A stretch of DNA of 64,000 bases from assembly GCA_049517415.1 (NCBI GenBank), contig JBEKSC010000001.1, positions 1-64,000 of the forward strand, read 5' to 3'. Made by a program: the position numbers and the translations under genes. The notes under the pieces were generated by a model that was given only the letters and a program-made list of their open reading frames with translations, ran no database searches and had not been told where the DNA came from. Numbering within the stretch: the stretch's first letter is position 1; the number at the start of each line of letters is the position of its first letter. Of this stretch, positions 18,614-41,733 are shown piece after piece. This stretch comes from Candidatus Bathyarchaeia archaeon (GTDB lineage: Archaea > Thermoproteota > Bathyarchaeia > 40CM-2-53-6).

Positions 18614-19618
18614 TTAAGTTCCCTGCGGCGTCTTATATTTTGACACAATATTTTCGGCAATCACTTTTGTTTGCGCGTGAAAGTCTTCGCTTAGAATGTA
18701 GGCGACTGCTGTCGTAACGCCAGCTTTCCAAAGCTCCTCCACCCTTGTGAGAGCTTGCTGAACAGTACCAATGACGCTGAATCCATCGATCATCTCATCA
18801 GTTACAAAATCCAAATGATGAGCAGCACTACTTGCGTGTTCCCAGTAGTCGTAGGCTCCCCTCTTTTCCATTCCCGCAATCAACGATTTGGGTAGGTTTT
18901 CTTTAGGATACTTGCGGAGAAGATCAAGAACATGGTTGGAGACCATCGCTGGGAACCAACGGACTTCGGTCCTTGCCTTGGCTATGTCATTAGTTACGTA
19001 CCATGCAGCAGCGGAGATAACTTCAAAGTTGCGCAGATCTCTACCAACGCTCTGAGCACCCTTCTTTACCCAATCCAAGGACCACTTTATCACCTCTGGG
19101 TCAGCTATTTGTAGAATAACCCCGTCGGCAACCTCACCTGCAACCTGCAAGGCTTTGGGGCCATAAGCTGCAACATAGATCGGGATCTTACACTTTGCCC
19201 AAGGAAATCTTACCGTTACCCCATCCACTTCCGCCGCATCGCCCGAAGTCAAACTTCGGATAACTTTCACGGCATGTTTAAGCTCCTCTAGCGTGGCAGG
19301 TTTCTTGCCCATCGTGCGAACTGCACTGTCTCCACGACCGATACCTACGAAAGCTTTTCCACCCGTCACGTTGTACAGAGTAGCGGCCAAACTCGCGGTT
19401 ACCGTTATGTGCCTCGTAAGCGGGTTCGTCACGAACGGACCTATGTTTATTCGATTTGTATTTACTGCCCATATAGCGTAATGTATCCAAGGTTCCTGCC
19501 ATAAGAAATGAGAATCGTATGTCCCTGCTAGCTTGAATCCCGTTCTGTCGGCCAATCGAACCGATTCAAGTGTCTCAAACGGTTGCCGGGCGTTATAGAT
19601 TACTCCGAAATCCTGCAT
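18614..19618 (-). CDS. LLM-class (putatively F420-dependent) oxidoreductase resembling the TIGR03842 type
   Basis: DSHFLWQEP, GPFVTNP.TR, GIGRGDSAVR, YVAAYGPKAL, ADGVILQ. Confidence 0.88.
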   Translation of the reverse strand: MQDFGVIYNARQPFETLESVRLADRTGFKLAGTYDSHFLWQEPWIHYAIWAVNTNRINIGPFVTNPLTRHITVTASLAATLYNVTGGKAFVGIGRGDSAVRTMGKKPATLEELKHAVKVIRSLTSGDAAEVDGVTVRFPWAKCKIPIYVAAYGPKALQVAGEVADGVILQIADPEVIKWSLDWVKKGAQSVGRDLRNFEVISAAAWYVTNDIAKARTEVRWFPAMVSNHVLDLLRKYPKENLPKSLIAGMEKRGAYDYWEHASSAAHHLDFVTDEMIDGFSVIGTVQQALTRVEELWKAGVTTAVAYILSEDFHAQTKVIAENIVSKYKTPQGT

Positions 19619-19869
19619 AGTTGGCTTACGAAGCGAAAAAAGATATAAGTTTTCTTTGGCAGAGCAAACCATCCTCTACTACGTTGCAGGGACACAACAT
19701 CCAAGCATTCCACCGTGAGTTTGGCATCAGAAACTAAGCGGCATACTCTATGATTCTAACTTGCAAACAACTACTACTCTAACAATAGGCGGGCTATGCA
19801 ACTGTCCGGCCGACCATCATCTGTGTTTGTGTCCGAGCAAAAAGCCATAGTAGATGATTAGGCTACCGT

Positions 19870-20325
19870 TCAAAGCGTCATGCATTCTATCCTTGGATCT
19901 TCTTTAACGACTCTTCCAACGATTTGAGTATTTGTTCTTTCGATATCAGGCATATTGCTTATCCGTTCGAGTTTTCGCATGTAATCCTCTCTATCTGTAG
20001 CTCGGATTAAGACGGTAAAGTCATAGTCTCCCAAAACATAATAGACTGCCCAGACGCCTGGAATTTGAGAGAGCTTCGTGCCGACTTTCTTGTGATATTG
20101 TGGACCATACTTAGCCTTCACGAGCACGACCGCAAGGTAATCGTATCCTAATCTGGCTGCGTTAAGTTTCGCATAGTAACCCTCAATTATCTTATCTCGT
20201 TCGAGTCTGCCGATTCTATAATGGACTGTAGATTTCGGAATCCCTAACATCTTAGCAACCTTCTGAAGGGGAGTCCTCGAGTCTCGCTGGAGTATTCCAA
20301 GCAGAGTCTTGTCTACCTTATCCAA
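19870..20325 (-). CDS. Lrp/AsnC regulator, Grp/BarR-like
   Basis: HTH IPKSTVHYRI; VKAKYG..YH, QIPGVW.VY.VLGD.DF and ERT.TQ match my recollection of Sulfolobus Grp/BarR. Confidence 0.9.
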   Translation of the reverse strand: MDKVDKTLLGILQRDSRTPLQKVAKMLGIPKSTVHYRIGRLERDKIIEGYYAKLNAARLGYDYLAVVLVKAKYGPQYHKKVGTKLSQIPGVWAVYYVLGDYDFTVLIRATDREDYMRKLERISNMPDIERTNTQIVGRVVKEDPRIECMTL

Positions 20326-20330
20326 CCCGC

Positions 20331-20825
20331 CTACACTCCCTTGTTTGCCACATTGAGCAGCACCTTGAGAATATCAGTCCGCTTCCAATCTCTTGCGGAG
20401 CTAGTCTTATCGTATCCGACGAGATTTCGGTTCGAGTTCATCATTAAGCTACAGTAGAGTGATTTCCCGCCTTTGGGTTTTACTTCTTGGATTGAGCATA
20501 TTCCCTCATTGAGGAACGTGCATGGAGAGAGAGAAAAAGTCCAACCTGTTTCAGCGATTGTACCTGGCTCGTCATCTTTGCGAGCGGGACAAACATAGTA
20601 ATGCTTCTTGCCTGAGACCTCAACGTAATCCAGTACAAGGAAACGCGTGAATAGCTCCGTTTCAGAAAGGCCGAAATGATCTGCAATCTTGCCGAGATCA
20701 TTAGGGGCTAGAGCGCAGGGATGGGTAATGCAACAGTTAGCACATCGTGAACAAGGCTTCAGTGTGGACGCCTCAATTCTTCCCAATGGGTTGCCGTATC
20801 CTCTCTCGGGAAATGGGTGCTGCAA
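20331..20825 (-). CDS. YkgJ-family cysteine-cluster protein
   Basis: CSRCANCC; C.FL...C.I..VKP. Confidence 0.75.
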   Translation of the reverse strand: MQHPFPERGYGNPLGRIEASTLKPCSRCANCCITHPCALAPNDLGKIADHFGLSETELFTRFLVLDYVEVSGKKHYYVCPARKDDEPGTIAETGWTFSLSPCTFLNEGICSIQEVKPKGGKSLYCSLMMNSNRNLVGYDKTSSARDWKRTDILKVLLNVANKGV

Positions 20826-20826
20826 G

Positions 20827-21258
20827 TTAAGAAAAGTCTTGGAGTGAGGTCAACGCCTTAGTTCTGTCTTGTGCGTAGCGCTTGTATAGCCTGCTTACAT
20901 TTGATATGAATTTGATTTTGTCGCCCGCCTCCACATAGAATTTCTGCATCCTTTCCTCAAGGGTTTTGGCAGCCGAGATCGCATCGGTTATCGCAGCTCC
21001 ATTTGGGAGGGTGGTGTTTAGAGCGTATGTTTCCTCGAAAATGCCTGACACTGGTTCGAGTAGAGAATGATCGACGCTCTCCCGAGCGGTTCTTTCAAGA
21101 TCCTTTCGTCGCCGGTCGCTGTTATCAGCGAATTTCGTGAATAATTCTTTTGCCTGTGCGAGTTGGTTTGTAGCTGCTAGCTTTCGGTAGAATTGGGCGG
21201 TCTGGTCTTCAAGTTGTAGGGTGTACCGGAGAACCATGCTGAAGGTAGTGAGTTCCAT
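20827..21258 (-). CDS. Ferritin-like/rubrerythrin-fold protein with a degenerate metal site
   Basis: Two LE....FY helices; lacks ExxH. Confidence 0.75.
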   Translation of the reverse strand: MELTTFSMVLRYTLQLEDQTAQFYRKLAATNQLAQAKELFTKFADNSDRRRKDLERTARESVDHSLLEPVSGIFEETYALNTTLPNGAAITDAISAAKTLEERMQKFYVEAGDKIKFISNVSRLYKRYAQDRTKALTSLQDFS

Positions 21259-21298: not shown

Positions 21299-22789
21299 CT
21301 AGAACCATCGCGATATGGCGACTTTTCGTTCCGTGAAGAAGTTGATAGCATCGTAGCCCTGCCCGTGCAGGTCCCCGAAGAATGAATCCTTCCAGCCGCT
21401 GAACGGGAAGAAGGCCACTGGTGCTGCTATGCCAATGTTGATTCCAACGTCGCCTGCCTGCACGCGGTGCTTGAATTCTCTTGCCCATTTGCCGCTTGAC
21501 GTGAATATTGACGCGGCGTTTCCGTACGGGTTCTCATGTATCATTCTAAGTGCGTCGTCGAAGTCCTTGGCTCTGATCAGGCACATAACTGGCCCGAAAA
21601 TTTCCTCGGAACCAATCTTGCTTTTCGGATCGACATTGTCAAAGATTGATGGGCCGATGAAGTAACCCTTCTCGTATCCAGGCACTTTGATGTCACGACC
21701 GTCCAGGATTAGCTTGGCGCCTTCCTTCAGCCCAGTTTCAATGTAGGATAGAACCTTGTCTTTAGCTGCTTTCGATCTGAGCGGACCCATCTGGACAGTC
21801 TCGTCAAGCCCGTAGCCTGTCTTGGTGGCTTTGGCAGAATCCATAAGTTTCTTCTTTAATTGCTCATAGAAGGCATCGTCACCCACTGCCACAACATTCG
21901 CTCCTGCGAGGCATCTTTGGCCGGCACAGCCGTAAACTGAGTTCATTACTGCAGGCATTATCTTGTCGAGTGGGGCGTCGGGCATTACGAGCAGAAAATT
22001 CTTGGCGCCTCCTTGGCATTGTGCGCGTTTTCCGTGGGCTGTTGCCGTGCTGTACACGTACTTGGCGACTGGTGTGGATCCTACGAAAGACACGCCCTTC
22101 ACATCTGGGCTTTGTAACAGCGCGTCAGAAACGTCTCTCGAACCGTTGACGATGTTGATTACTCCCGGTGGAAAGCCGGCTTCGTCGGCCAGCTCCGCCA
22201 TCTTGTTCATAGTAAGAGGAACTTCGCTGGACGGTTTTACTATGTAGGTATTGCCGCATGCTACAGCGTATGGAAGGAACCAGAACGGAATCATTCCTGG
22301 AAAGTTTGATGGCGGTAGACACGCGAAGACACCAAGGGGCTGTAGGATACACTCCTCGTCTAGACCGGGGGCTATAGTCTCCAGATTGTAACCCATCATC
22401 AATGTGGGAATGCCCGCGGCGTGTTCGACGCATTCGATAGCTCTTCGAATCTCCCCACGAGACTCATCTATACTCTTCCCATGTTCTTTTGTTAAGATTT
22501 GTGAGACTTCTTCGAAGTGCTCTTCCATGATATTCTTGAGCGTGAACATGTAGCGCGCTCGCGTCAATGCTGGAGTTTCACTCCACTCCTCGTACGCCTC
22601 CTTGGCATAGCGAATAGCCTCATCCACTTCCTCTTTCGTAGACATGGGAACACGGGCCATGACTTCAGTCGTGGCAGGGTTCACGACGTCTAGGGTCTTT
22701 GTCGATTTGGATACGACCCATTCACCGTTCACATAATTTCTGATAACCGGGATTTCCTTCTTCTCAATCACTTTTGTGGCTTGTACCAT
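21299..22789 (-). CDS. mmsA: CoA-acylating (methyl)malonate-semialdehyde dehydrogenase
   Basis: SFVGSTPVA, GGAKN, AGQRCLA, EEIFGPV, FPFSGWK.SFFGDLH. Confidence 0.95.
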   Translation of the reverse strand: MVQATKVIEKKEIPVIRNYVNGEWVVSKSTKTLDVVNPATTEVMARVPMSTKEEVDEAIRYAKEAYEEWSETPALTRARYMFTLKNIMEEHFEEVSQILTKEHGKSIDESRGEIRRAIECVEHAAGIPTLMMGYNLETIAPGLDEECILQPLGVFACLPPSNFPGMIPFWFLPYAVACGNTYIVKPSSEVPLTMNKMAELADEAGFPPGVINIVNGSRDVSDALLQSPDVKGVSFVGSTPVAKYVYSTATAHGKRAQCQGGAKNFLLVMPDAPLDKIMPAVMNSVYGCAGQRCLAGANVVAVGDDAFYEQLKKKLMDSAKATKTGYGLDETVQMGPLRSKAAKDKVLSYIETGLKEGAKLILDGRDIKVPGYEKGYFIGPSIFDNVDPKSKIGSEEIFGPVMCLIRAKDFDDALRMIHENPYGNAASIFTSSGKWAREFKHRVQAGDVGINIGIAAPVAFFPFSGWKDSFFGDLHGQGYDAINFFTERKVAISRWF

Positions 22790-22986: not shown

Positions 22987-24330
22987 TTATTCGATTTCTT
23001 TGTCAGCTACGGAGAGCGATTTGTCTAGTGCCTCGATGCCTTGGTCGATCTCTTCTTTCTTGACTATGAGTGGGGGCGCAATGGTTAGGTAGTTGATCCA
23101 AGTCGATACGAATACGCCGTTGTTCATGCATTCGTTCGCGACACGGTCAACCATCAACGGTTTACCCTGAATCTTATCTTCACGCGTATTGAACCAGGCT
23201 CTTGTTTTTCTATTTCTTACTAGTTCGAGGCCCCAGAACAAGCCAATTCCACGTGCATCCCCAATCGAGGGATGCTTGTCCTTCAACGCCTTCAATCGGT
23301 TACCCATATACTCGCCAAGCTCCTTCGCGCGTTCAATGAGGCCTAATCGCTTGTATTCTTGAATCGCAGCAACTCCAGCAGAGAGAGTTAGGGGATGAGC
23401 CTCATACGTATGGCCTAGCGCAAAGTAATGCTCCTCATAGTAATCTGCAATTTCACGTGTTGTCGCCGTGACGCTGAGTGGAATATATGCCCCCGTGATG
23501 CCCTTGGCGGTGGTTAGAATGTCAGGTTTTACGTTCCAATGATTAACAGCAAACCATTCTCCAATTCTCCCCCAACCGCTCATGACCTCATCGCAAATCA
23601 GGAGAACACCATGTTTCTTCGTGATTTCACGTATGCGTGGCAGATATTCGTCGGGCGGAACGATGACCCCATTGCTGCCGACAATCGGTTCTAGGATAAC
23701 GGCGGCAACATTGGATTCATGTTCGATCATGTACTCCACGTAATCAGCGCAGGTTATACCACAGTCGGGATATTCAAGCCCGAACGGGCATTGGTAACAG
23801 TAGGCATCCGGCGCGAAAATGACCCCCTCTATCTTCCCAGCAGGCTCGATCGGATAGCGCCTAGGATCGCCAGTGGCTGCAATAGACCCCGCCGTTGAGC
23901 CATGGTATGACGTGTACCGTGAAATGATCTTGTACTTGCCAGTATACTGCCGTGCAATCTTAATCGCCGCCTCATTTGCCTCGGTCCCCGAAGTAGCGTA
24001 GAAGAACTTCTCAAGTCCCTGGGGCATCACGCCCAACAGAGACTTGGACAATTCTGCCCTAACCTCTGTACCGAACGCAGGCGCCACATACGGGAGTTTC
24101 TTGGCTTGCTCACAGATAGCTTCGATTACAGCCTTGTTCCTATGCCCAAGGTTTGAGCACATCAGTTGGGATGAGAAATCAAGAAAACGCTTCCCCGATG
24201 CATCGGTGAAATTACACCCTTCCGCATCAGTTATTATGCGCGGCACCCATCCCTTCTGCGCGCGCCACGTTCCATATGTGTGATGTTTTATGAGAGACAC
24301 GGCATCCACTTGTTCCACCATTTCAACCAT
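22987..24330 (-). CDS. Class III aminotransferase, beta-alanine/taurine:pyruvate type
   Basis: DFSSQLMCSNLGH, SYHGST, DEVMSGWGR, TAKG, GHTY. Confidence 0.92.
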   Translation of the reverse strand: MVEMVEQVDAVSLIKHHTYGTWRAQKGWVPRIITDAEGCNFTDASGKRFLDFSSQLMCSNLGHRNKAVIEAICEQAKKLPYVAPAFGTEVRAELSKSLLGVMPQGLEKFFYATSGTEANEAAIKIARQYTGKYKIISRYTSYHGSTAGSIAATGDPRRYPIEPAGKIEGVIFAPDAYCYQCPFGLEYPDCGITCADYVEYMIEHESNVAAVILEPIVGSNGVIVPPDEYLPRIREITKKHGVLLICDEVMSGWGRIGEWFAVNHWNVKPDILTTAKGITGAYIPLSVTATTREIADYYEEHYFALGHTYEAHPLTLSAGVAAIQEYKRLGLIERAKELGEYMGNRLKALKDKHPSIGDARGIGLFWGLELVRNRKTRAWFNTREDKIQGKPLMVDRVANECMNNGVFVSTWINYLTIAPPLIVKKEEIDQGIEALDKSLSVADKEIE

Positions 24331-24596: not shown

Positions 24597-25622
24597 TCAT
24601 TTCGTTATCTGAGTGCCTGACTTACCGCCCAATGCGTCGACGGCCTTGCTAAGGGAACTTATTATTGCTCGTTCCCCGCCCCACTTCAGGAACCTTAGGC
24701 ATGCCTCCACTTTGGGGGCCATGCTGCCTGAGAGGAATTGCCCCTGGGCAAGGTACGCTTCTGCTTCTGTCACAGTCATCTTGTCTATAGGTTTCTGGTC
24801 CGGTTTACCGAAATTCAGCATCGCCTGATCAATGTCGGTGAGTACCAGGAAGTCGGTTGCATTGATGGCCTCAGCCATTCTTTCACCTGCTTTGTCTTTG
24901 TCTATCACCGCGAATACACCTTCTAGATGTCCATCCTTGTTGCGGAACACAGGGATGCCTCCACCGCCAGACGCTACAACGATAACCCCCTGATCGACAA
25001 GCTTCCTTACTGTATCTCCTTCAACATTCGCAATGGGGTCAGGCGACGGTACAACTCGGCGGTATACTTTAGCGGCCGAACCCAGAGGCTTGACTTGCTT
25101 GATGACAAACCCCTTCATTTTCTCCTGCATGTGTTCTTTGCCAGGTTTCGGATTGATGACGTACCCTTTCTCTTCTACAAGTTTGTCAGCCTCTTCTTTT
25201 GAGAAGAAGTTACCTACCGGCTTCGTGGGATCCAAGAAATCCGGATCGTCGGGGCTTACGAGAACTTGGTTCACAACCGAAATCACCTGCAGCCGCGCCA
25301 AGCTGCCCCCAGCGTCGCGAAGGACGTTTTGAAGCGTCTGCTGGAACATGTAACCAATTTGTCCTTGGGTCATAGCACCGACGACGTCCAAGGTCTGTGG
25401 AGGAACGAGCGTTTGGGCCTGCTCCTGCTGAACCAGCAGGTTACCTGCTTGCGGGCCGTTGCCGTGGGTTATTGCAATTGAATCCGCGGCTTTTCTTCGG
25501 AAGAGCGTCGCGATCTGTTCACACGTTACCGCGACATTGTGGAACTGTTCTTGGGTGGTCCCCATCTCGTTCGCTTGCTTTATGGCGTTTCCGCCTAGCG
25601 CAATCAACAATCTCTTACTCAA
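24597..25622 (-). CDS. arcC: Carbamate kinase
   Basis: ALGGNA, THGNGPQ.G, PTKPVG, RRVVPSP, GGGGIPV, IDKD, GSMAPK. Confidence 0.97.
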   Translation of the reverse strand: MSKRLLIALGGNAIKQANEMGTTQEQFHNVAVTCEQIATLFRRKAADSIAITHGNGPQAGNLLVQQEQAQTLVPPQTLDVVGAMTQGQIGYMFQQTLQNVLRDAGGSLARLQVISVVNQVLVSPDDPDFLDPTKPVGNFFSKEEADKLVEEKGYVINPKPGKEHMQEKMKGFVIKQVKPLGSAAKVYRRVVPSPDPIANVEGDTVRKLVDQGVIVVASGGGGIPVFRNKDGHLEGVFAVIDKDKAGERMAEAINATDFLVLTDIDQAMLNFGKPDQKPIDKMTVTEAEAYLAQGQFLSGSMAPKVEACLRFLKWGGERAIISSLSKAVDALGGKSGTQITK

Positions 25623-25752
25623 TCACTTACCCTCAAAACAAATTATGGTGACCCTCGGTTTCGTACGTCAACCACTTAGCTCAATGCGGCACTCTACTAG
25701 TGCCGAGTCTGAGTGCAAAGACTAATAAACGCGCCTAGCCGCGGTTCTCCGC

Positions 25753-27294
25753 TTGATTGCTTTGGCTCTGACGGAACCCCAAAAGACAATACTAACCGTT
25801 CAGAATCTCACAAAGAGATTTCCACCTAACGTCCTAGCGCTCAATGACGCAAACCTTTCCCTAGAAAAGGGAAAGATGTACGCCTTGGTGGGCGAGAACG
25901 GGGCTGGCAAGACCACTTTACTGAAGATCATCTTTGGCTTGCACAAACCGAGCTCAGGCAGGGTGTTCTTCAAGGGAGAGGAAGTGACCGGTAACTCTCC
26001 CTCCGAGAACATCGACAAACGCATGGCGATGGTAACACAAGAGCTCTCTCTTATTTCCACGTTTGATTCTGTTGAAAACACGGCCCTCCAAAGGGAATTT
26101 TCCAAGAAGTTGGTCTTGGACCTGTCCGACAGCGGTTATAAGCTAAGTCAATGGGCGGAGCAGTTAGAGTTCAAAACCGACCTCCGAAAGAAGATCGCCC
26201 AGCTTCCGCTAGAAGAGTGCCAAAAACTCGAGGTGCTAAGGCGCCTATCCTGCTTTGTCGACCTGCTAATGCTAGATGAGCCTTCGACTATGCTGACTCC
26301 CCTCGAAGAAGAGCAGCTGTTGTACGCTCTCAAGAACCTCGTCGCTAAGTTTGGGCTAACGGTGGTTATCACAACCCACAAATTTCAAAATCTCTTGAAG
26401 TACCCAGACGAAATCGTGGTAATGAGAAAAGGCACCGTTGTCCTGCACGACAAGGTCGAACATCTATCAATGACCGACGTGATAAGGGCTGTCACGGGCG
26501 AACAACCGAGAAGAAGAACGGAAGCCGACCGGCGCGTCGAAACGGCGCCTTTGTTGGAACTAAAGAATCTTAACTCTGTGGATCGCCAGAGCGGGCGTTC
26601 TTTGAAGGACATAAGCCTCACGGTTCATAGTGGCGAGTTCGTAGGAGTGGTTGGATCGGCGTTTAGCGGAAAAGACGTTCTAGCCAAGGCCATTATGGGC
26701 ATGGCTCACAATACGCAAGGGTCTGTGATATTCGACGGTGAAGACATAACAAGGCGGAAAACGAAGCAGATCTTGTCCAAGGGATTGGATTGCATCTTCA
26801 AGGACAGAGAGATGATGCAGGTCCCGACACTGAGTGTGGCTGAAAACGTAGTGCTGAATCAGTACTATGAACAACCTTTCTGTAAGAACTTCCTCATGAA
26901 TAGGAGCGCCATGGAGGCACTCGCAGAGAAAGCGGTGAGTGCATTCGCGATAAAAACCCCGAGCACGAGTACACCCGTGAAAGCTCTTTCTGGGGGGAAT
27001 CAACGCAAGGTTATGATTGCGCGTGCGTTGCTGAAGGAATCGAAACTGGTTATCGCAGAGGAGCCGGCGATCGGTCTCGACATAAGGACTAGCCAAGAGG
27101 TCATGGATTACCTAGTTCGATTGAGGAACCGGGGAGGAGGAGTTATTTTGATCAGTGAGGAGCTTGGGGACGTGATAGCATATTCCGACAATGTCTATGT
27201 GCTATATGAAGGAACAGTTAAGAACGTGCTGCCAGCTTCCGAAGCCACGATAGATAAGCTAGGGGGGTATATGCTTGGATTGGACAAAGTATAG
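25753..27294 (+). CDS. Nucleoside/sugar (CUT2) ABC transporter ATPase with two ABC domains
   Basis: GENGAGKTT; LSGGNQRK. Confidence 0.93.
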   Translation: MIALALTEPQKTILTVQNLTKRFPPNVLALNDANLSLEKGKMYALVGENGAGKTTLLKIIFGLHKPSSGRVFFKGEEVTGNSPSENIDKRMAMVTQELSLISTFDSVENTALQREFSKKLVLDLSDSGYKLSQWAEQLEFKTDLRKKIAQLPLEECQKLEVLRRLSCFVDLLMLDEPSTMLTPLEEEQLLYALKNLVAKFGLTVVITTHKFQNLLKYPDEIVVMRKGTVVLHDKVEHLSMTDVIRAVTGEQPRRRTEADRRVETAPLLELKNLNSVDRQSGRSLKDISLTVHSGEFVGVVGSAFSGKDVLAKAIMGMAHNTQGSVIFDGEDITRRKTKQILSKGLDCIFKDREMMQVPTLSVAENVVLNQYYEQPFCKNFLMNRSAMEALAEKAVSAFAIKTPSTSTPVKALSGGNQRKVMIARALLKESKLVIAEEPAIGLDIRTSQEVMDYLVRLRNRGGGVILISEELGDVIAYSDNVYVLYEGTVKNVLPASEATIDKLGGYMLGLDKV

Positions 27295-31932: not shown

Positions 31933-32154
31933 ATGCCTTGCTGTGTTCTATGTCCAGGCTTCTATGATTGTGACAAGATGAAAAGCAAGAATGCTCTTGG
32001 CCGAACAGCCTCGTATCGAAACAAGGTCCTAGCTCGTTGCTGCGAGACGTGCAGCTACTACGACTCCAAGTCCGGGTGGGGCAGAGCTTGGTGGTGCAAG
32101 AGACCATTCCAGTTCGAAGTTGCGCCCGCAACATGTTTTGAAGCGACGGTGTAG
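31933..32154 (+). CDS. 73-aa Cys-rich protein (two CCxxC motifs)
   Basis: Starts 15 nt after transcarbamylase A, GGAAGGTG upstream; 9 Cys. Confidence 0.6.
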   Translation: MPCCVLCPGFYDCDKMKSKNALGRTASYRNKVLARCCETCSYYDSKSGWGRAWWCKRPFQFEVAPATCFEATV

Positions 32155-32579
32155 CGGATCCCGATTCTGCTTTCCAAAAGTAGTGCTGTTTAGCTGTATT
32201 AGTGCTCTAGCTCCATTACGAAACCGAATGCACTGGCTGGCAGAACCTGCGGCCCCCCGACGTCCAAGCACGCCTTTTCAAATTCGATGTTTTCCTAGAG
32301 AAATGCGTCAAGCGAAACCAAGCGCTTCCGCATTGGAGAGTTTCTTATGGCCTGCGTGATGTCAACGCATTGCATGTGCTCCCCCCTCGCAGGCTATCTA
32401 AGATGTAGAGAAGGTTTGATGTCGGGATTGCGTGAAGTTCAAAACGGACTGGTTTCGGATGTTAAACTGGAAGTTTGAACCGGCCCGACGGGTCTGGATC
32501 CTAACACGCTCCAGTATTGGGCATTGGAAATTGGAATAGTTTCGAACGCTTAAATATTCTGAGGGCACCAACTAAACTC

Positions 32580-33947: not shown

Positions 33948-34125
33948 CCAAGTCAGGACAAGTCAGGCAGGACACGACGAACGTGGCGACACGTCTAGCT
34001 CTTATTTTAGACTGATGCAGACTGGAGTCCCCATATCCTCTCGAACCATCGACTGACAACCAGACTGAAGTTGCGTTCTTGGTATCATTGAGTTACTACC
34101 CGCTGAAGTTCTCTGATTTGGATTC

Positions 34126-35136
34126 CTATGTACCGAAGGTATTAATCATCTGACTCATGTTTGGTGTTATTGGCAGGATAACTGGGTAGGAGGCACCCGC
34201 CTTGACATACGCCTGCACACCAGTTTTGCAATCCTCCGGAGTTCCCGAAACCGTCAGCATGTCTACAACCTTGTCATCCACGAGCTTCATCGCCGCCTTC
34301 GGCCCGTCTTTCGTCGGAGGCCACCCACCTAATGCCTTACCGACATCCTTGATGAGTTGTTCCTTCACCCCACTTGCAAGCCCGATGTGTGGTTGTTGGC
34401 CGAGATAAAGGGTCACCAAATATCTTGCGGCCTCCTTTGCCTTTTCCGCATCTTCGTCCATTGCGACACCGATGAGCTGTGGCCTATCAATCTCCGACAC
34501 CTTCTTGCCTGCCTTTTTGGCTCCCTTGCCAAGTGCATCCAAAGAAAGCTTCAGGTATGGGACCGAGGTGAAAGCATTGAGAAATACTCCGTCGGCTATT
34601 TCTCCCGTGAGCTCCATCATCTTGAGCCCTGTTGCCCCGATGTAGATAGGGACGTTTACAGGGTTCTTGGGTCTGCCGTATCCCAAGTCCAGTGCGATAT
34701 CTCTGACCTTCATCACCTTACCTTCGTAAGTGAACCTTTCGAGGTTGAACAGCCGTCGCATAATCCCCACGAACTCCCTCATCGCAGTGAGCGGCATCTT
34801 CCGCTCGATTCCTTGTTTCCACGCGAGAGGATCCCAGTAAGCACCTACTCCCAGTATGGCCCTCCCATGAGACAGTTCATCGAGGGTCGCAAATGTCATA
34901 GCCGTCAGAGAGGGGACTCTGGTCCAGATGTTTATGACTCCAGGAGCGAGTTTGACGCGTTTGGTTATTGGGGCGAAGGCACCCAAGACGGATATAGCGT
35001 CCCGAACCAGCCTAGTTTCGCACGCCCAAATCGAGTGAAAACCCTTCTGGTCAGCCAGTTTCGCAAGTTCAAGTTGTTCGTCGGTACCTGGTCTGTCAAG
35101 AAAACAGAGGCCAACCCGTTTGTCATCGGAAGACAT
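34126..35136 (-). CDS. LLM-class (Mer-like, putatively F420-dependent) oxidoreductase
   Basis: ETRLVRDA, INIWTR, IYIGATG.KM.EL.GEIADG. Confidence 0.88.
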   Translation of the reverse strand: MSSDDKRVGLCFLDRPGTDEQLELAKLADQKGFHSIWACETRLVRDAISVLGAFAPITKRVKLAPGVINIWTRVPSLTAMTFATLDELSHGRAILGVGAYWDPLAWKQGIERKMPLTAMREFVGIMRRLFNLERFTYEGKVMKVRDIALDLGYGRPKNPVNVPIYIGATGLKMMELTGEIADGVFLNAFTSVPYLKLSLDALGKGAKKAGKKVSEIDRPQLIGVAMDEDAEKAKEAARYLVTLYLGQQPHIGLASGVKEQLIKDVGKALGGWPPTKDGPKAAMKLVDDKVVDMLTVSGTPEDCKTGVQAYVKAGASYPVILPITPNMSQMINTFGT

Positions 35137-35292
35137 GTGCTACAGGCGGCCACTCAGAAGATATAAGCGTTTAATTTCAAGCGCGCTTGAATCCTTGGCT
35201 CAAATCAAATCGTCCATCATAACATCGTGAACAAAACCTTAATAGGACTTTTCGGAACTCAGAAGAATTACGAATTTCAAAGGGCGAGAATT

Positions 35293-36270
35293 ATGGATTT
35301 GAAAGGACGAGATTACATCTCTCTGAAGGACTATAACGAAGAAGAGCTCTACATGATTTTTGACACTGCTGCGGATCTAAAGAGAAAACTCAAACGTAAT
35401 GAACCTCACGAGTTGCTCAGAGGAAAAACGATGGCGATGATTTTTGATATGCCCTCCACCCGAACAAGAATCTCGATGGAGACGCTGATGACGCAACTTG
35501 GTGGTCATGCACAAATGATCACTTCGGAGCAGTACTGGACAACAAAGAAAGAATCTTTGGCCGACTCTGCCAAAGTTTTCAGTAGATATGTGAACGGCGT
35601 CTTCATTAGGACATTCGCATACAAGGACATAAAGGAATTCGCCGACTACGCGAGCGTACCTGTCATCAATGCCTATTGTGACATGGAACATCCCTGCCAA
35701 GTCGCGGCTGACATAATGACAACCAGGGAGAAGAAGGGTACTTTGAAGGGCAGAAAGACTACCATAGCTTGGGCTTTCTCCAATTTCAACAAATCGCTTG
35801 GAATCGTGAATTCGACACTCTATACCGCTCCAAAGCTCGGTATGGACCTAACAATAGCCTGTCCTGAAGGATACGAACCAGACGCAGAAGTTGTGGAGTA
35901 TGCGAAATCAGTAGCAAAAGAAACAGGAGCGCAAGTTGAGATAACATCAGACTTGAACGAGGCCGTCCGAGACGCTGATGTGATTCATATCAAAGGCTGG
36001 GCCCCGCACGAGATAATTCGAATGGGCCCGAAAGGAATCGATGCCATGTCTCCGCACAGGCAAAACCCTGGTAAATACAAGCAATGGGTAATCAAGCAAG
36101 AACACCTGGATTTGGCAAAGAAGGGAGTCAACATACAGCATGCTCTACCTGTTGAAAGAGGCGTCGAGGCTTTGGATGAAATCATGGACGGGCCGAATTC
36201 CGTAATCTTCGACGAAGCCGAGAACAGACTGCACTCCGCGAAAGGAGTGGTAGCACTCATTCTCGAATAG
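35293..36270 (+). CDS. Transcarbamylase B (YgeW/AOTCase-like; HALP instead of HCLP)
   Basis: PSTRTR, HPCQ, IAWA....KSL, QHALP, DEAENRLH. Confidence 0.92.
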   Translation: MDLKGRDYISLKDYNEEELYMIFDTAADLKRKLKRNEPHELLRGKTMAMIFDMPSTRTRISMETLMTQLGGHAQMITSEQYWTTKKESLADSAKVFSRYVNGVFIRTFAYKDIKEFADYASVPVINAYCDMEHPCQVAADIMTTREKKGTLKGRKTTIAWAFSNFNKSLGIVNSTLYTAPKLGMDLTIACPEGYEPDAEVVEYAKSVAKETGAQVEITSDLNEAVRDADVIHIKGWAPHEIIRMGPKGIDAMSPHRQNPGKYKQWVIKQEHLDLAKKGVNIQHALPVERGVEALDEIMDGPNSVIFDEAENRLHSAKGVVALILE

Positions 36271-36806
36271 AACCCGAATCATTGCCGTCCCTGCCCCCGC
36301 GAAAGTAGTTTCCCGGGGTCCCCATTCCACATTGTTCTCTATTCCTAAATTGCCCACCTTATTCGAAGTACCTCTCTTCTTTCGAGCGAGACTAACGCTG
36401 CCGAATCAATGGACAAGACTCTGGCTGTATCGACCAAGACGAAGCGGGCTCAGGCGACAGGACGAGTCCTTAGCTGGCGACGATTCTACAAATTGTGGGT
36501 TAGCCTGAACCTTTTCGTCAGCCTCAGCAGATGCTTCGTTTGACTGGTCGTGGATCGCCTGCGCCGCTATTTGAGACAAGAGCCTCCTTGACGAAACACA
36601 CTTCATCTTACTCATTATTTTCTCATCCTCGACAGAGTATATGGCACCATCGCAGCTGTCAATGTCATTCGTTGAACAGCCCTAACAATAGAAAGTCGCC
36701 ATCATCCATAGAAAATCGCCACGTGAGAGCCCTATTGGAACGGATAGGACACTCCAAATAAGTACTCGAAGCGACCGGCGCTTCGGCGATACCCTGCTAT
36801 CGCGGT

Positions 36807-38189
36807 TTACAAGTCGGGCCGACCCGAAACAAAGGGGACGCCCTTGACGAATTGTCCCCTACCCTTCTTGCCACTGAACTGGCCGTTTTCAGCGATGACA
36901 TCACCTCGTGAGATCGTCATGACAGGATACCCGGTTACGGTGACGTCCTCGTAAATCGAGTAGTCAATATTACTGTGTAGATTGTCCGCCGAAAGTCTTA
37001 CTTTCTTTTGGGGATCGAATATTATGATGTCAGCGTCGCTGCCCACTGCGATGGTTCCTTTTCTTGGGTAAAGGCCATACATCTTTGCAGCATTAGAGGA
37101 CCCTACCTGTACCAATCGATTGAGAGAAAAGATATTCTTTCCAATGCCCTGAGAATAGAGTATGGGTAGAATCTGCTCTGTACCGGGAACACCATTCGGA
37201 ACCTTGTCGAAGCCATGCTGATTCTTCTGCTCCAAAGTGAATACCGCGTGATCACTGCCGACTGTTTGAATAGAACCATTTGCCAAACCTTGCCATAACT
37301 TTGCGCTGTCCTCTTCACTTCTAAGTGGTGGCGACATGATGTACCGATTCCCATCGGGTCTCCTTAGTGCCTCATCCGTAAAGGTAAGGTAATGCGGACA
37401 GGTTTCTGAGTAGATGGGAACGCCTCTAGTCTGAGCCTCTTTGATTTCGTTTACGGCTAGACCTGTCGATACGTGGACTATGTATAAGGGAGAATGTGCC
37501 ATCTCAGCCAGCCGGATACCTCGCTGAACCGCCTCTGCCTCAGCCAATGATGGCCTCGACTTTGCATGATACTCCGGGTCAATCTTACCTTCACTCAGAT
37601 ATCGAGCCACGAGACAATCAATGACTTCGCCGTTCTCAGCATGTAGACCAACTAAACTTCCGTTCTTTACGGCTTCTTCCATGACTCTGAATATTGATCC
37701 ATCATTCATGGAAAATGCCCCCTTATACGCCATGAAAACCTTCAAACTCACAACCCCCTCCGCTGTTAACGCGCCAACTTGGCTGAGATTAGTGGGATTG
37801 AAGTCTCTGAAAATCATATGAAGACCATAATCAATGGTTACCTTGGGATCAGCTTTCATGCGCCATGTCTTGTACGCATCCAGCAGAGTATCGCCCTTGG
37901 ATGGAGTGGCAAAATCAACGATTGTAGTTACGCCCCCACATGCAGCGGCCACCGTGCCATGATAGAAATCATCAATCGTTTCCGTTCCCATGAATGGCAT
38001 TTCCATATGTGTATGACCATCGATGAATCCCGGAAAGACCAACTTTCCTTGGGCATTTATCACCCTGCTGGCGGACTCCTTGCTCGACTTTGAGACTTCG
38101 ACTACTTTTCCATCTTTTATTCCGATTTCTCCTTCGAACGTATCTGATCCCGTAACAATCTTTCCATTTCTTATTATCAAGTCTAGCAT
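36807..38189 (-). CDS. hydA: Dihydropyrimidinase / D-hydantoinase
   Basis: DGHTHMEMPF, SLKVFMAY, HAENG, IVHVS, SPPLR, GSDH. Confidence 0.95.
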   Translation of the reverse strand: MLDLIIRNGKIVTGSDTFEGEIGIKDGKVVEVSKSSKESASRVINAQGKLVFPGFIDGHTHMEMPFMGTETIDDFYHGTVAAACGGVTTIVDFATPSKGDTLLDAYKTWRMKADPKVTIDYGLHMIFRDFNPTNLSQVGALTAEGVVSLKVFMAYKGAFSMNDGSIFRVMEEAVKNGSLVGLHAENGEVIDCLVARYLSEGKIDPEYHAKSRPSLAEAEAVQRGIRLAEMAHSPLYIVHVSTGLAVNEIKEAQTRGVPIYSETCPHYLTFTDEALRRPDGNRYIMSPPLRSEEDSAKLWQGLANGSIQTVGSDHAVFTLEQKNQHGFDKVPNGVPGTEQILPILYSQGIGKNIFSLNRLVQVGSSNAAKMYGLYPRKGTIAVGSDADIIIFDPQKKVRLSADNLHSNIDYSIYEDVTVTGYPVMTISRGDVIAENGQFSGKKGRGQFVKGVPFVSGRPDL

Positions 38190-38331
38190 TGATGACGCCG
38201 TCTCAACTTAGCAGAGTCCTTAATTATTAATGGTTTCTCGAGCGATTCTCAAGCGGCCCGCACTGTTAGCCAATAGGATGCTGACGATGGTTTTCCAAAA
38301 GCCTTCTCTGCTTACGAGAGGTTCATTTGAA

Positions 38332-38508
38332 GCCGGTATGGCTCAACTTGGCGAGGGTGCATGACGTTAAAGGCATACCCCAATGACGCGGCGGACATAA
38401 TCTTTGGCGAGGATCCAAAAGATCATGTAGTTGTCCTCTGCAGTACGGCCGACATGATTACTGCCCTGGGCAGCTAGGAGCCCCGGGTTCCTAGGCTAGG
38501 CCGCGTAA
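38332..38508 (+). ncRNA. Candidate structured RNA with a tRNA-like 5' end and a multibranch domain
   Basis: GCCGGTA TG GCTCAACTTGG start; ACGCGGC/GCCGCGT closing helix around three hairpins; G-U pairs favour the + strand. Confidence 0.45.
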
Positions 38509-38511
38509 CCC

Positions 38512-38979
38512 TCAAAATTGCTTTAGGATGTCTTCTCTTTCCATGATGTGACCGCAGAAAGAGCATCCTAATCTAATGGGTTCTCGTTGAGTCACGCCAA
38601 ACTGTGGTTGAACGGGTTCCCTCGAATTTGAGATACAAGAGGGGTTGTCGCATTTCAGAATGCCCCGAATTGTAGACGGGAGTTCAACGTTTTTCTTAGT
38701 CGTGACTTCATAGTTCCGAATTATGTTGATCGTGGCCTTTGAAGCAATTAGGGCGATCTTGTTCACTTCTGCTGGCTTAAGTTCCCTATCCTGAATCTTT
38801 ACGATGTCTTTGTGACCAAGTCCTTTGCTGTCAACATTCATTGCTGCAGTTACAGCCCCTCCTGCCTTTCCGTTGATGCCGAGAATTTTCAATACGTCAA
38901 GAGCGAAACCAGGCGTTATGTGATCGATGACTGTTCCATCCCTGATCTTGCTAACGTAAAGTTCTTGTCGTGTCTCCAA
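38512..38979 (-). CDS. pyrI: Aspartate carbamoyltransferase regulatory chain
   Basis: GTVIDHI, KDIVKI, ATINII, CDNPSC...CSFC. Confidence 0.97.
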   Translation of the reverse strand: METRQELYVSKIRDGTVIDHITPGFALDVLKILGINGKAGGAVTAAMNVDSKGLGHKDIVKIQDRELKPAEVNKIALIASKATINIIRNYEVTTKKNVELPSTIRGILKCDNPSCISNSREPVQPQFGVTQREPIRLGCSFCGHIMEREDILKQF

Positions 38980-39050: not shown

Positions 39051-39971
39051 GTGCAGTTTGCCGGAAGAGATATCGTATCGATCAAAGATTTCTCGCGGGA
39101 AGAGATCGACCACATTCTGAAGATGACAGATGTCGTCGAGCCGATGGCGAAAACAGGTTCGCATGCGCTTGACGGCAAAATTATGGCTACGCTGTTCTTC
39201 GAGCCCAGCACTCGAACTCGTCTCAGCTTCGAATCTGCAATGTATCGTTACGGCGGCAAATGCTTAGGTTTCGCTGAACCTAAAGTTGCATCAGTTGAAA
39301 AAGGAGAGAACTTGGCGGATACCGTCCGTACCGTAGAGAGCTATGCAGATATTCTTGTCATTCGTCACCCTCTGGAAGGCGCGGCACGTCTAGCTGCCGA
39401 GTTTGCCTCCGTCCCAGTCATCAACGCCGGAACGGGAGCTGAAGAACATCCGACTCAGGCTATGCTTGACCTCTACACGATGCGAAAGGAAACGGGAAAG
39501 CTAGATGGGTTGAATGTCGCACTCGCCGGCGATCTCAGGTACGGGCGGACCGTTCACTCACTAGCATATGCGCTTTCGCTATATGACATCAACCTCTACT
39601 TGATTTCACCACCTCTGCTAAGGATGAGAAAGGAGGTGTTGGAAGAGGTCAAAGATCGAATCAAGATCCAGGAGCTTGAGGATCTATCCAAAGTAATCCC
39701 GCAAGTTGATGTTCTCTACATGACACGGATTCAGAAGGAACGTTTTGGTTCCTTGGAGGACTACGAAAAGGTTCGCGGATCCTACAAACTTGCCGCGGGC
39801 GACCTAAGCACAGCAAAGCCCGGAATGATTCTCATGCATCCGTTGCCTCGAGTTGACGAAATCGCATACGACGTCGACGCCACTCCTCACTCCAAATACT
39901 TCAAACAGGTCTTCTATGGACTTCTGGTGAGGATGGCTTTAATCGGGCTTGTTCTCGGCGCCTTGAGTTAA
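39051..39971 (+). CDS. pyrB: Aspartate carbamoyltransferase catalytic chain
   Basis: FFEPSTRTR, HPTQ, GDLRYGRTVHS, TRIQKER, HPLPR. Confidence 0.98.
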   Translation: MQFAGRDIVSIKDFSREEIDHILKMTDVVEPMAKTGSHALDGKIMATLFFEPSTRTRLSFESAMYRYGGKCLGFAEPKVASVEKGENLADTVRTVESYADILVIRHPLEGAARLAAEFASVPVINAGTGAEEHPTQAMLDLYTMRKETGKLDGLNVALAGDLRYGRTVHSLAYALSLYDINLYLISPPLLRMRKEVLEEVKDRIKIQELEDLSKVIPQVDVLYMTRIQKERFGSLEDYEKVRGSYKLAAGDLSTAKPGMILMHPLPRVDEIAYDVDATPHSKYFKQVFYGLLVRMALIGLVLGALS

Positions 39972-40142
39972 ACGGAGTCGCAACCGCGGGCACCGATTGT
40001 AATATTCGCGATCAGATTTGCAGTAATCCTTCCTTGAGGACGTAACCAGCATAGGGCTGGCGCAAAACTTGACTGCCATGTTGGAAGATGCAGAAGCCGC
40101 AAGTTATTTCTAGAAGATGCAATAATTGCTTAGGGTTCTGAA

Positions 40143-40604
40143 ATGGAGCATATCGAAGATAGGAAAGCCCATCAAGGTTTCATGAAGGTAGCCATCGAGG
40201 AAGCAAAGCTCGGAATGCATGAGGGGGGCGTTCCAATTGGGTCCGTCCTTGTACGGAACGGAAAGATCATTGGACAGGGACACAACAGACACATACAGGA
40301 GCGAGACCCAACCTCGCACGCAGAAATCGATTGTCTTCGCAAGGCAGGAAGAATAGGTAGCTATAGCGACACAACAATCTACTCCACATTGATGCCTTGC
40401 TACCTCTGTTCAGGAGCAGTCGTCCAATTTGGAATAAGCAAGGTAGTTGTGGGAGAATCGGCGACTTTTCCCGGAGGTGAGGAGTTAATGGTAAGCCATG
40501 GCGTTCAGGTAATCAACCTAAACCTCGATGAATGCAAAGAAATCATGAAGCAGTTCATAGAGAAATATCCGAAGCTATGGGATGAGGATATAGGGAAACT
40601 CTGA
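40143..40604 (+). CDS. Cytosine deaminase, Fcy1-like (nucleoside deaminase family)
   Basis: GGVPIGS, HAE, PCYLCSGA, WDEDIG. Confidence 0.9.
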   Translation: MEHIEDRKAHQGFMKVAIEEAKLGMHEGGVPIGSVLVRNGKIIGQGHNRHIQERDPTSHAEIDCLRKAGRIGSYSDTTIYSTLMPCYLCSGAVVQFGISKVVVGESATFPGGEELMVSHGVQVINLNLDECKEIMKQFIEKYPKLWDEDIGKL

Positions 40605-40641
40605 CGGCTTCGTTGCCTGGTTACTGAATCTGACATGACTT

Positions 40642-41733
40642 TTATCTCAGAGGATCCGCCTTTACTTTTTCTAATCCTTTCTCGAGTCTGAGCAGCTCAT
40701 CTGACGCTATCTTTTCCTGCCAATCCTTCAATTCTCCGATCTCTAGCAGACTTTTCATTAATCGTATACTGTTTTCTAGGTGGCCAGCTATGTCACCTTC
40801 TTCATAACCCAGGCCGTTGAAGAGTCTACTTTGACGCGCGGACCAATCACCGGGTTGATCCGACCCGGGAACAAATTCATGTAGATATTCCACAAATGTG
40901 ACTCTATCGACCAAGGCGCCGAGTTTGCTGATCGAATGATCCCTTCGCCAAAGCCATTCGTCTACCCCGTATAGTGGCATGTCGTAATTGTTGGCGCAGA
41001 GAGCGGTTAGATTGCCGATTGCAAATGCTACTAATGGAATACCGTGGCTTCGCGCAATTTTGTCGAGCAGCTTGAGTCCTTCTAGAGCGATGAATCCATA
41101 GAGAATCCACTTGGAGATATGCGAGCCGACTTCTTCGCAATGATTAATGGCGGCTCTGATGCTGACTTCGGCTGACCTACTGCTTGCCACTGTATCTTGC
41201 ATTATCAAGAAAACCTCGCTGTTTGCGGGAAGTTCCGCAAAATCTTCGTAAACTATGTCAAGTTGTCGGTGAACTATGCCGTCGTGATCTCGATAAGATG
41301 TGTGAGTGTAGCGAGGCCTAATGTTGACGGTTCTATAGTTGCCTGGTATTACTCGACTCGCTGCCTGATGCAGGTTGTACCCGGGAGCGGCTCGGAGTAT
41401 TTGTTCAAATACTATTGCGCCCTCCTTAGCGGTATTGATTTGTGATAGTTCGAGAATTGCAGGAAGACTCTGTTCTGCAGCCTCTAGTGTGAGTTTTTCA
41501 AGTTCATCCCCGACCACATGTGGGTGGCAAGCGATTCTTCGGGTCATAGGAGTGTCGATGATGAAGGCATTCAATGAGGAGCTTTGAACTTCAAAGACTC
41601 TAGTCTGCGGATTAAGATTTGTTTTAGTTAGCTTAGCGGGTCTTGTAGCGTCGACATTGACGCCGTATTCCTGAATTATGGAATCCACTAGGTTTGTTTC
41701 AAGTTCTTCCAATTGCTCCATCTCGGAAAACAA
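40642..41733 (-). CDS. Divergent type I phosphoribosyltransferase (UPRT-like)
   Basis: QILRAAPG resembles UPRT ILRAG; QDTVASSRS resembles the PRPP loop D..LATG.S; C-terminal PGDW. Confidence 0.6.
   Translation of the reverse strand: MFSEMEQLEELETNLVDSIIQEYGVNVDATRPAKLTKTNLNPQTRVFEVQSSSLNAFIIDTPMTRRIACHPHVVGDELEKLTLEAAEQSLPAILELSQINTAKEGAIVFEQILRAAPGYNLHQAASRVIPGNYRTVNIRPRYTHTSYRDHDGIVHRQLDIVYEDFAELPANSEVFLIMQDTVASSRSAEVSIRAAINHCEEVGSHISKWILYGFIALEGLKLLDKIARSHGIPLVAFAIGNLTALCANNYDMPLYGVDEWLWRRDHSISKLGALVDRVTFVEYLHEFVPGSDQPGDWSARQSRLFNGLGYEEGDIAGHLENSIRLMKSLLEIGELKDWQEKIASDELLRLEKGLEKVKADPLR

Follow-up and report, generated by a model that had tools for sequence, protein, structure and literature searches.

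The question raised by the locus considered here is whether an archaeon may conserve ATP while it breaks down uracil and thymine. To our knowledge, all textbook routes of pyrimidine breakdown hydrolyze the ureido group and so lose its carbon and nitrogen. The window that we analyzed is the whole stretch of 64,000 nucleotides from a Bathyarchaeia genome (C1:1-64000; the assembly, labeled G000 below, has 59 contigs and 2.65 Mb). Alba and TBP, both encoded in this genome, mark the organism as an archaeon. Between positions 18,614 and 41,733 it holds a group of genes, the island, for which a sequence-only reading had proposed an ATP-yielding, phosphorolytic form of reductive pyrimidine catabolism. 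This proposal stands in part: each of its core steps is supported by comparative evidence, whereas the roles given to two of the genes, TC-B and LLM2, and the conservation of the island are not. Judging from gene content and context, we consider it slightly better than an even chance that reductive pyrimidine catabolism is encoded here in a variant form, in which two of the usual enzymes have non-orthologous replacements.

The scheme takes its gene identities and synteny from observation, while all of its substrates and the use of F420 are what we infer. Uracil or thymine would enter, as base or nucleoside, through an ABC system of the BMP type. A luciferase-like oxidoreductase, LLM1, would reduce the base with F420H2, standing in for PreTA or PydA, and the dihydropyrimidinase would open the ring to N-carbamoyl-beta-alanine or N-carbamoyl-beta-aminoisobutyrate. 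A transcarbamylase, TC-A, would then cleave the ureido group with phosphate rather than water, releasing the beta-amino acid and carbamoyl phosphate. Carbamate kinase would convert carbamoyl phosphate and ADP to ATP, CO2 and NH3, pulling the unfavorable phosphorolysis, and a class-III aminotransferase together with a CoA-acylating (methyl)malonate-semialdehyde dehydrogenase (MMSDH) would turn the beta-amino acid into acetyl- or propionyl-CoA. Passages of two papers place transcarbamylase equilibria on the side of carbamoylation (PMC4016543; PMC12507026), and carbamate kinase and the downstream enzymes would therefore be needed as a pull. In what follows, genes were called from the listing of open reading frames (ORFs) and from Pfam and NCBIfam scans, and scores are given in bits against the curated cut-off.

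A transcarbamylase in the ureidopropionase position

Orthologues of TC-A were found in 5 of the 150 other genomes of a phylum-wide sample, and all five belong to a single family, f44, which contributed 15 genomes to that sample. Their identity to TC-A is 67-70% in the genome search and 65-68% by tblastn. The gene order is the same at all five loci: aminotransferase, a HAD phosphatase on the opposite strand, a PreT-like gene, PreA, dihydropyrimidinase and TC-A, with PreA scoring 532 against 335 (NF006183) and the dihydropyrimidinases 521-540. Because TC-A follows PreT, PreA and dihydropyrimidinase at every one of these loci, it lies in the slot of beta-ureidopropionase in the canonical operon. 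Such operons are the only contexts known so far for the TC-A subclade. Carbamate kinase is found 1.8 kb away at one of the f44 loci (L324) and exceeds its cut-off in each of the four remaining genomes. The co-location of a transcarbamylase, carbamate kinase and a ureide-forming hydrolase, which in the island all lie inside 24597-38189, thus recurs in L324. We propose from this context that TC-A is a phosphorolase of N-carbamoyl-beta-alanine, and of N-carbamoyl-beta-aminoisobutyrate, in other words a beta-alanine carbamoyltransferase.

TC-A homologues number in the thousands, and database homologues of TC-A and TC-B bear the names ornithine or N-acetylornithine carbamoyltransferase. It was of interest to ask how far the two resemble ornithine transcarbamylases (OTCs). 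On the OTC model TIGR00658 (cut-off 280.85) TC-B scores just above the limit with 293.3, which favors an ordinary ornithine, acetylornithine or putrescine transcarbamylase of arginine or polyamine metabolism; TC-A falls below it with 253.0, as it does for all models, whereas the canonical OTC of this genome, encoded on contig C42, reaches 427.1. Passages of a 2015 review (PMC4581275) describe the DxxxSMG signature and the lysine of the Fx(K)xSxRT motif as marks of OTCases. Both are absent from TC-A and TC-B: the 240s loop reads YPKGWCSWELL in TC-A and HIKGWAPHEII in TC-B, compared with DVWVSMG in the canonical OTC, and the lysine of FEKPSTRTR in the latter is replaced by asparagine in TC-A (WYNPSTRTR) and methionine in TC-B (FDMPSTRTR). 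No arg genes lie beside either gene, and both fall with full support in a clade apart from the canonical OTCs (see below), so that we give almost no credence to a role in arginine or polyamine metabolism. According to the same passages of the review, an extended 120s loop and a proline-rich loop mark the knotted enzymes. TC-A shows sequence marks of this type, namely the proline-rich loop GPGAWKPLSVPQ and a 120s loop 12 residues longer, and TC-B does not, its 120s loop being unextended and its insert free of prolines. The nearest solved structure for both proteins is Pyrococcus OTCase, joined in the case of TC-A by YgeW.

The sequence-only reading had called both transcarbamylases YgeW-like, and this holds only at the level of the clade. 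Neither attains the cut-offs of the YgeW models TIGR03316 and NF005538 (500 and 453), on which TC-A scores 189.5 and 202.6 and TC-B 105.9 and 110.7; TC-A has 334 residues, compared with 391-396 positions in these models, which include extra N- and C-terminal helices. We placed 136 transcarbamylases in a tree (quick IQ-TREE search, LG+G4, with SH-aLRT as the only support measure), in which TC-A, TC-B and two further proteins of the genome, TC-C and TC-D, share a single clade of 83 rows (support 100), apart from the canonical OTCs. This superclade also holds all 10 bacterial enzymes found in urate contexts and a long YgeW-like group. Within it TC-A has its own subclade (SH-aLRT 100), outside a clade of 43 rows that contains those ten enzymes and the YgeW-like group. 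Nine sequences of the TC-A subclade have 14 positions that are invariant among them and depart from the urate-type consensus; most of these are in acceptor-side loops.

The ring-reduction step

LLM1 is a member of TIGR03842 and LLM2 is not (72.5 against 295.45). Of 301 Actinomycetes genomes sampled, 74 have a member over the family's cut-off, and contexts were fetched for 20 of the 30 best loci. In all 20 a CN-hydrolase, a dihydropyrimidinase and the TIGR03842 protein are contiguous and on one strand. Family scans of three of the loci gave about 246 bits for the CN-hydrolase on the N-carbamoylputrescine amidase (aguB) model and about 540 for the dihydropyrimidinase. At 9 of the 20 loci there is a class-III aminotransferase close by, and at 3 an MMSDH; a transcarbamylase or carbamate kinase was seen at none of the 20. 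Judged by its genes, the trio is a pyrimidine operon with an LLM in place of PydA. Since TIGR03842 proteins adjoin a carbamoylase-like CN-hydrolase and a dihydropyrimidinase at every locus fetched, LLM1 is a candidate uracil/thymine reductase of the F420 type.

Comparison with one actinobacterial locus (L296) supports the assignment of further island genes. When its dihydropyrimidinase (PydB), LLM, aminotransferase and MMSDH were used as queries, the best matches in G000 were all in the island (40, 43, 35 and 41% identity), and the next-best were 29, 24, 31 and 30%. The window dihydropyrimidinase is likewise the top match in G000 of the f44 dihydropyrimidinase (46%, next-best 33%), and the f44 enzymes as a group are 46-53% identical to it. 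An archaeal LLM1 subclade is known at 66-97% identity (P0241-P0257), with no member in the order, class and phylum genome samples. Our literature searches covered sources outside the subscription journals, and within these no published F420-dependent dihydropyrimidine reductase was found.

The sequence-only reading had seen neither PreTA nor a ureidopropionase in the window and had called for a search of the genome. Whole-genome family searches bear out the first observation, as the window contains no CN-hydrolase, M20 "hydantase" or DHO_dh/PreA match. They also revealed no PreTA or PydA anywhere in the genome, where the sole DHO_dh protein over its cut-off is a type-2 quinone PyrD (NF003652 275.6 against 267) beside an FrhB-like gene, and the best PreT-like match is only 25% identical. 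The M20 carbamoylases are missing genome-wide as well (best score 28.1 against 204). There is no ureidopropionase in the window; three CN-hydrolases are encoded outside it, none of them in a relevant gene context, and one is a Nit-family candidate that is weighed below.

Carbamate kinase and the other transcarbamylases of the genome

The carbamate kinase of the island is the single match in the whole genome. The genome encodes six transcarbamylase genes and one fragment; the six are the canonical OTC, PyrB and TC-A to TC-D. TC-C and TC-D form a divergent pair at C1:161154-163482. In other genomes of the same genus (compared at G002:C1:111450-114618, locus L243) a carbamate kinase gene lies between the orthologues of TC-D and TC-C, and in G000 this gene is absent from the junction, which is a gap of 227 bp (C1:162227-162454). 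The island kinase is 56% identical to the kinase beside the f44 operon, and 60-63% identical to kinases of other families compared with 44-51% to those of the same genus. The absence of a kinase gene at the TC-D/TC-C junction and the affinity of the island kinase to those of other families together suggest that the island was acquired and that the native carbamate kinase was lost. The transcarbamylase remnant at 38251-38364 (Table 1) is closest to TC-A (57% over 30 residues); it abuts the dihydropyrimidinase gene, before pyrI, and looks like the trace of a rearrangement.

TC-C and TC-D belong to a second transcarbamylase cluster, C1:156800-169700 (L004:6803-19703), which also contains an Ord-like dehydrogenase, a hemL-like gene, TrxR, ThrC-like and CysK-like pyridoxal-phosphate (PLP) enzymes, an ATZ/TRZ-SsnA-like amidohydrolase and a BMP binding protein. 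In its gene content this cluster resembles variant urate clusters of bacteria that have two transcarbamylases. The triple in which TC-C-like and TC-D-like genes flank or adjoin carbamate kinase was also seen in metagenome-assembled genomes (MAGs) of a Thermotogae bacterium and an unclassified bacterium (L011, L012), and because it recurs there the paired module is old and widespread.

Points against the pyrimidine scheme

A number of observations weigh against the scheme and are taken together here. The first concerns the arrangement and conservation of the island. TC-A is 4.9 kb from the dihydropyrimidinase gene and LLM1 is 11 kb from TC-A, and carbamate kinase, aminotransferase and MMSDH are separated by gaps of 197-266 bp, so that a single operon is not implied. 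Synteny across relatives, which the sequence-only reading had proposed to test, did not extend to the island as a whole, which is not conserved and is unique to G000 among the relatives searched. LLM1 turned up in 1 of 61 relatives and in 1 of 401 genomes in each of the class and phylum samples, the latter two counts resting on five first-look candidates scored per genome, so that LLM-rich genomes could hide members. For TC-B the counts are 2 of 401 genomes in the class sample and 2 of 105 in the order sample. Further, the evidence for the core scheme is borne by LLM1 and TC-A only, and not by LLM2 or TC-B.

The second point is the supply of F420. A search for cof genes, also called for by the sequence-only reading, covered CofD, CofE and CofH; it recovered CofD (339.8 against 257.45) and two CofE proteins (295.2 and 241.0 against 180.65) but no CofH genome-wide (best 20.7 against 374.1). 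The FrhB-like gene is present as well. Without CofH, F420 would need scavenged Fo or an unrecognized synthase. The genome is rich in LLM-type genes even though CofH was not found, and Fo scavenging is possible.

Third, the Nit-family CN-hydrolase at C1:124754-125515 shares 35% identity with the PydC-like protein of Actinomycetes and could, to judge from this similarity, hydrolyze ureidopropionate. Were this so, LLM1 and the dihydropyrimidinase would act with the distal Nit enzyme in a hydrolytic route, and the presence of the transcarbamylases and carbamate kinase in the island would be fortuitous, their role being in the use of an unrelated ureide. The island genes are indeed spread across both strands, and in Actinomycetes the LLM is always accompanied by a hydrolase and, at the 20 loci, never by a transcarbamylase. 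However, the Nit protein fits a generic archaeal nitrilase (316 against 500 on that model), scores 124 bits on aguB compared with 246 for the actinobacterial PydC-like protein, and is encoded beside phosphoenolpyruvate synthase, 85 kb from the island, while TC-A occupies exactly the PydC slot in the f44 operons. We therefore regard the hydrolytic route as improbable.

Fourth, the dihydropyrimidinase is not specific to pyrimidines by family. TIGR02033 also takes in hydantoinases of the HyuA type, and the closest same-genus enzyme (54%, G002) is encoded beside adenine deaminase, an XdhB-like gene and an SsnA-like amidohydrolase. According to the family description TIGR02033 enzymes are often promiscuous D-hydantoinases, and the ABC importer may have a ligand other than a pyrimidine, so that the substrates might be hydantoins or N-carbamoyl amino acids of another kind, such as ureides derived from creatinine or hydantoin. 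This is distinctly improbable given that PreA adjoins the TC-A orthologues, that MMSDH and a beta-alanine-type aminotransferase suit beta-amino acid products, and that the trio of PydC-like protein, PydB and LLM is recurrent.

Finally, the superclade to which TC-A belongs is otherwise tied to urate clusters, with carbamate kinase, YgeY, SsnA and xanthine dehydrogenase (XDH) genes nearby. This point requires a closer look at TC-B and LLM2.

TC-B, LLM2 and the urate clusters

Passages of a 2025 paper describe a reductive uric-acid pathway in which YgeW phosphorolyses the 2-ureido group of the HyuA product and ATP is made by carbamate kinase, and mention ring-reductase variants in Chloroflexota that carry an LLM (PMC12507026). 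The island might accordingly be a further copy or an extension of an archaeal version of this pathway, for 2,8-dioxopurines, with the dihydropyrimidinase acting as HyuA, LLM2 as ring reductase and TC-A and TC-B stripping 2,3-diureidopropionate of both its ureido groups. In that case LLM1, the aminotransferase and MMSDH would be bystanders.

Contexts of TC-A homologues are relevant here. Eighty loci were fetched from genome contigs, of which 34 (L007-L040) carry relatives at 45-54% identity, all bacterial. Of the 34, 19 have carbamate kinase as a direct neighbor and 10 a second transcarbamylase that resembles aspartate transcarbamylase (ATCase); none has MMSDH, an island-type aminotransferase or LLM1. 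Scans of 13 of these loci revealed YgeY (467-582 bits on TIGR03526), SsnA, D-hydantoinase, XDH-type molybdoenzymes, 8-oxoguanine deaminase and ThrC-like and CysK-like proteins, and an LLM is sometimes found, as in the urate-type cluster L033. As to the composition of these clusters, an M20 gene lies beside the YgeW-like gene without a second transcarbamylase in L007, L010, L018 and L019 (the YgeY model was scored in two of them), L024, L033 and L039 have the ATCase-like second transcarbamylase and no M20 gene, L026 has both, its M20 protein being below the YgeY cut-off, and two further loci with two transcarbamylases are ambiguous.

TC-B, which has HALP in place of HCLP, represents a small family; its nearest named homologue comes from a Bathyarchaeia MAG. 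The genomes of its closest relatives (72-50% identical; P0122-P0142) are absent from the order, class and phylum samples, and a metagenome scan with very general peptide patterns from the TC-B alignment returned 80 loci that are nearly all canonical OTCs, at no more than 44% identity, for which tblastn gave no informative TC-B context. At 45-48% identity, relatives occur beside SsnA and a UacX-like flavoenzyme (L117, in a sister subclade) and with carbamate kinase, LLM, SsnA and HyuA (L118). The SsnA-like gene next to the TC-B-like gene of L118 (L118:3881-5073, on G039:C41) is split in two ORFs of 176 and 211 residues, which may reflect a frameshift or an assembly error. LLM2 shares 45% identity with the L033 LLM and 53% with an LLM of the same genus that is encoded close to the second transcarbamylase cluster. 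A paralogue of the hemL-like gene of the island (32517-33947) belongs to that cluster. On these contexts urate is the likeliest reading for TC-B and LLM2, and together with the hemL-like gene they may form a second module, whose ureide could belong to the thymine branch or be a diureide derived from purines.

For the island as a whole we consider the urate interpretation unlikely, though it should be taken seriously. The purine context of the G002 dihydropyrimidinase orthologue, the shared superclade and the contexts of the TC-B relatives all speak for it. On the other side, the TC-A subclade lies outside the urate-context clade and is known only from PreT-PreA-dihydropyrimidinase operons, and Pfam and NCBIfam scans found no SsnA or XDH gene in the window. 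LLM1, aminotransferase, MMSDH and dihydropyrimidinase jointly mirror the actinobacterial pyrimidine gene set. The genome, moreover, already has purine-type genes elsewhere, including the genus-conserved TC-C/TC-D cluster with its ThrC-like, CysK-like and amidohydrolase genes. Three XDH-family sets, an LLM and an SsnA-like/HyuA-like pair were seen at C1:89938-93636, C1:179125-180228, C1:190068-197935 and C30:7012-10496. This LLM, on C1, is 56% identical to that of the urate-type cluster, closer than LLM2. From their gene content, these probably make up a separate purine-degrading system. The possibility that the island is wholly an archaeal reductive-urate cluster was dropped once the TIGR03842 contexts and the f44 contexts of TC-A had been seen.

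Gene content of the island

The features of the island are collected in Table 1. Every gene that the sequence-only reading had listed was found again in the ORF listing and the family scans: two LLMs, of which LLM1 exceeds the TIGR03842 cut-off and LLM2 is Mer-like; an ABC importer with ATPase, two permeases and a BMP/PnrA-type binding protein (25753-30769); dihydropyrimidinase, carbamate kinase and CoA-acylating MMSDH, each over a curated cut-off; and a beta-alanine-type aminotransferase, which is a class-III enzyme. The label "cytosine deaminase" is not established, as the best NCBIfam match of that protein is TadA, well below its cut-off. PyrB (a third transcarbamylase), PyrI, the hemL-like enzyme and the 38-residue remnant had been omitted.

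Table 1. Features of the island, in window positions, with scores in bits (against the curated cut-off where two values are given).
Feature	Position	Strand	Family evidence
LLM1, luciferase-like oxidoreductase	18614-19672	-	TIGR03842 347.7 vs 295.45
Lrp/AsnC-type regulator	19870-20325	-	PF01037, PF13404
Two small ORFs	20331-21258	-	weak: PF03692 (CxxCxxCC) 24.5 vs 23; PF02915 (rubrerythrin-like) 22.5 vs 22.8
CoA-acylating MMSDH	21299-22789	-	TIGR01722 555.8 vs 448.5
Class-III (omega/beta-alanine-type) aminotransferase	22987-24330	-	PF00202 303.6
Carbamate kinase	24597-25622	-	NF009007 277.6 vs 266; TIGR00746 349.9 vs 358.25
ABC importer, fused double ATPase and two permeases	25753-29168	+	PF00005, PF02653
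BMP/PnrA-type substrate-binding protein	29606-30769	-	PF02608 80.7
TC-A, non-canonical transcarbamylase, 334 aa	30913-31917	+	below every NCBIfam cut-off
hemL-like class-III PLP enzyme	32517-33947	+	NF000818 370 vs 398
LLM2, Mer-like LLM, divergent from TC-B	34126-35136	-	best TIGR03555 193.9 vs 348.7
TC-B, second non-canonical transcarbamylase	35227-36270	+	TIGR00658 293.3 vs 280.85
Dihydropyrimidinase/D-hydantoinase (PydB)	36807-38189	-	TIGR02033 529.8 vs 393.25
Transcarbamylase N-terminal-domain remnant, 38 residues, one TGA	38251-38364	+	PF02729 27.7
PyrI	38512-38979	-	TIGR00240 176.3 vs 148.55
PyrB	39051-39971	+	TIGR00670 389.5 vs 236.95; RxQxER motif
CDA-fold nucleobase/nucleoside deaminase	40143-40604	+	PF00383 85.8; TadA 90.8 vs 150

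The two small ORFs are spaced 1-40 bp from their flanking genes. The BMP/PnrA gene and TC-A are divergent and 143 bp apart, and TC-B probably starts at 35293 (325 aa), to go by the database form P0121. The ORF at 40642-41733 had weak or no match in the family scans. The GC content of the island (0.47-0.52) shows no contrast with the remainder of the window. The genome's only ATCase gene, pyrB, is divergent from pyrI and lies inside this catabolic island, adjoining enzymes that would make carbamoyl phosphate. At the edge of the island, a transporter of the amino-acid-permease family (41834-43423) has an orthologue (56%; L258:6014-7561) that adjoins a same-genus dihydropyrimidinase orthologue, and it may be a second importer tied to that enzyme.

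Relation to known systems

The proposed route shares with the reductive pyrimidine (Pyd) pathway its overall chemistry, the dihydropyrimidinase and the downstream aminotransferase and MMSDH, and in the f44 relatives PreT and PreA as well. It would differ in two respects. A TIGR03842 LLM would replace PreTA or PydA in G000, and a transcarbamylase with carbamate kinase would replace ureidopropionase, so that CO2 and NH3 would be released only after one ATP had been made. The type of pathway and the pairing of transcarbamylase with carbamate kinase are known; the two proposed replacements are not.

The closest precedent for the second replacement is the YgeW-YqeA urate step, in which, as passages of PMC12507026 describe it, a transcarbamylase of the same superclade acts on a HyuA-type product and carbamate kinase yields ATP. 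Unlike YgeW, TC-A is shorter, lies outside the urate-context clade and is linked to PreT, PreA and PydB rather than to SsnA, XdhD and YgeY; its proposed substrate is a 3-ureido monocarboxylate. The arginine and agmatine deiminase pathways likewise gain one ATP from an unfavorable ureide phosphorolysis pulled by carbamate kinase, but the acceptor loops of the island enzymes lack DxxxSMG and the ureide would come from a cyclic amidohydrolase instead of a deiminase. A comparable replacement of an amidohydrolase in the catabolism of an N-heterocycle is proposed in passages of PMC4016543 for the ureidoglycine carbamoyltransferase of Rubrobacter xylanophilus, whose gene also neighbors those of a cyclic amidohydrolase and carbamate kinase. 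That enzyme belongs to the ATCase branch and acts on allantoate, whereas TC-A is of the OTC/YgeW branch.

A catabolic beta-alanine transcarbamylase is itself an older idea. The relevant passage of the 2015 review says that it "remain[s] to be proven" and gives no gene for it (PMC4581275); the activity proposed for TC-A is identical, and candidate genes can now be named. Beyond that remark, our literature searches found no published phosphorolytic ureidopropionate step.

Taken further, these results lead to a wider and more tentative picture, to which we assign somewhat less than an even chance. Two anaerobic archaeal lineages would ferment pyrimidines with substrate-level formation of ATP, the previously unassigned TC-A subclade being the postulated beta-alanine carbamoyltransferase that replaces beta-ureidopropionase, after PreTA in f44 and after an F420-dependent LLM in G000. 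A second ureide would be handled on the same principle by TC-B and LLM2, and the four transcarbamylases of the YgeW superclade would feed a single carbamate kinase.

If the pyrimidine scheme is true, beta-alanine carbamoyltransferase, a new enzyme activity, gains candidate genes, and the name ornithine carbamoyltransferase would have to be changed in many database entries. For the TIGR03842 family there would be a candidate function, that of an F420-dependent uracil/thymine reductase. For the organisms themselves, it would mean that uracil and thymine are ATP-yielding fermentation substrates for abundant sediment archaea.

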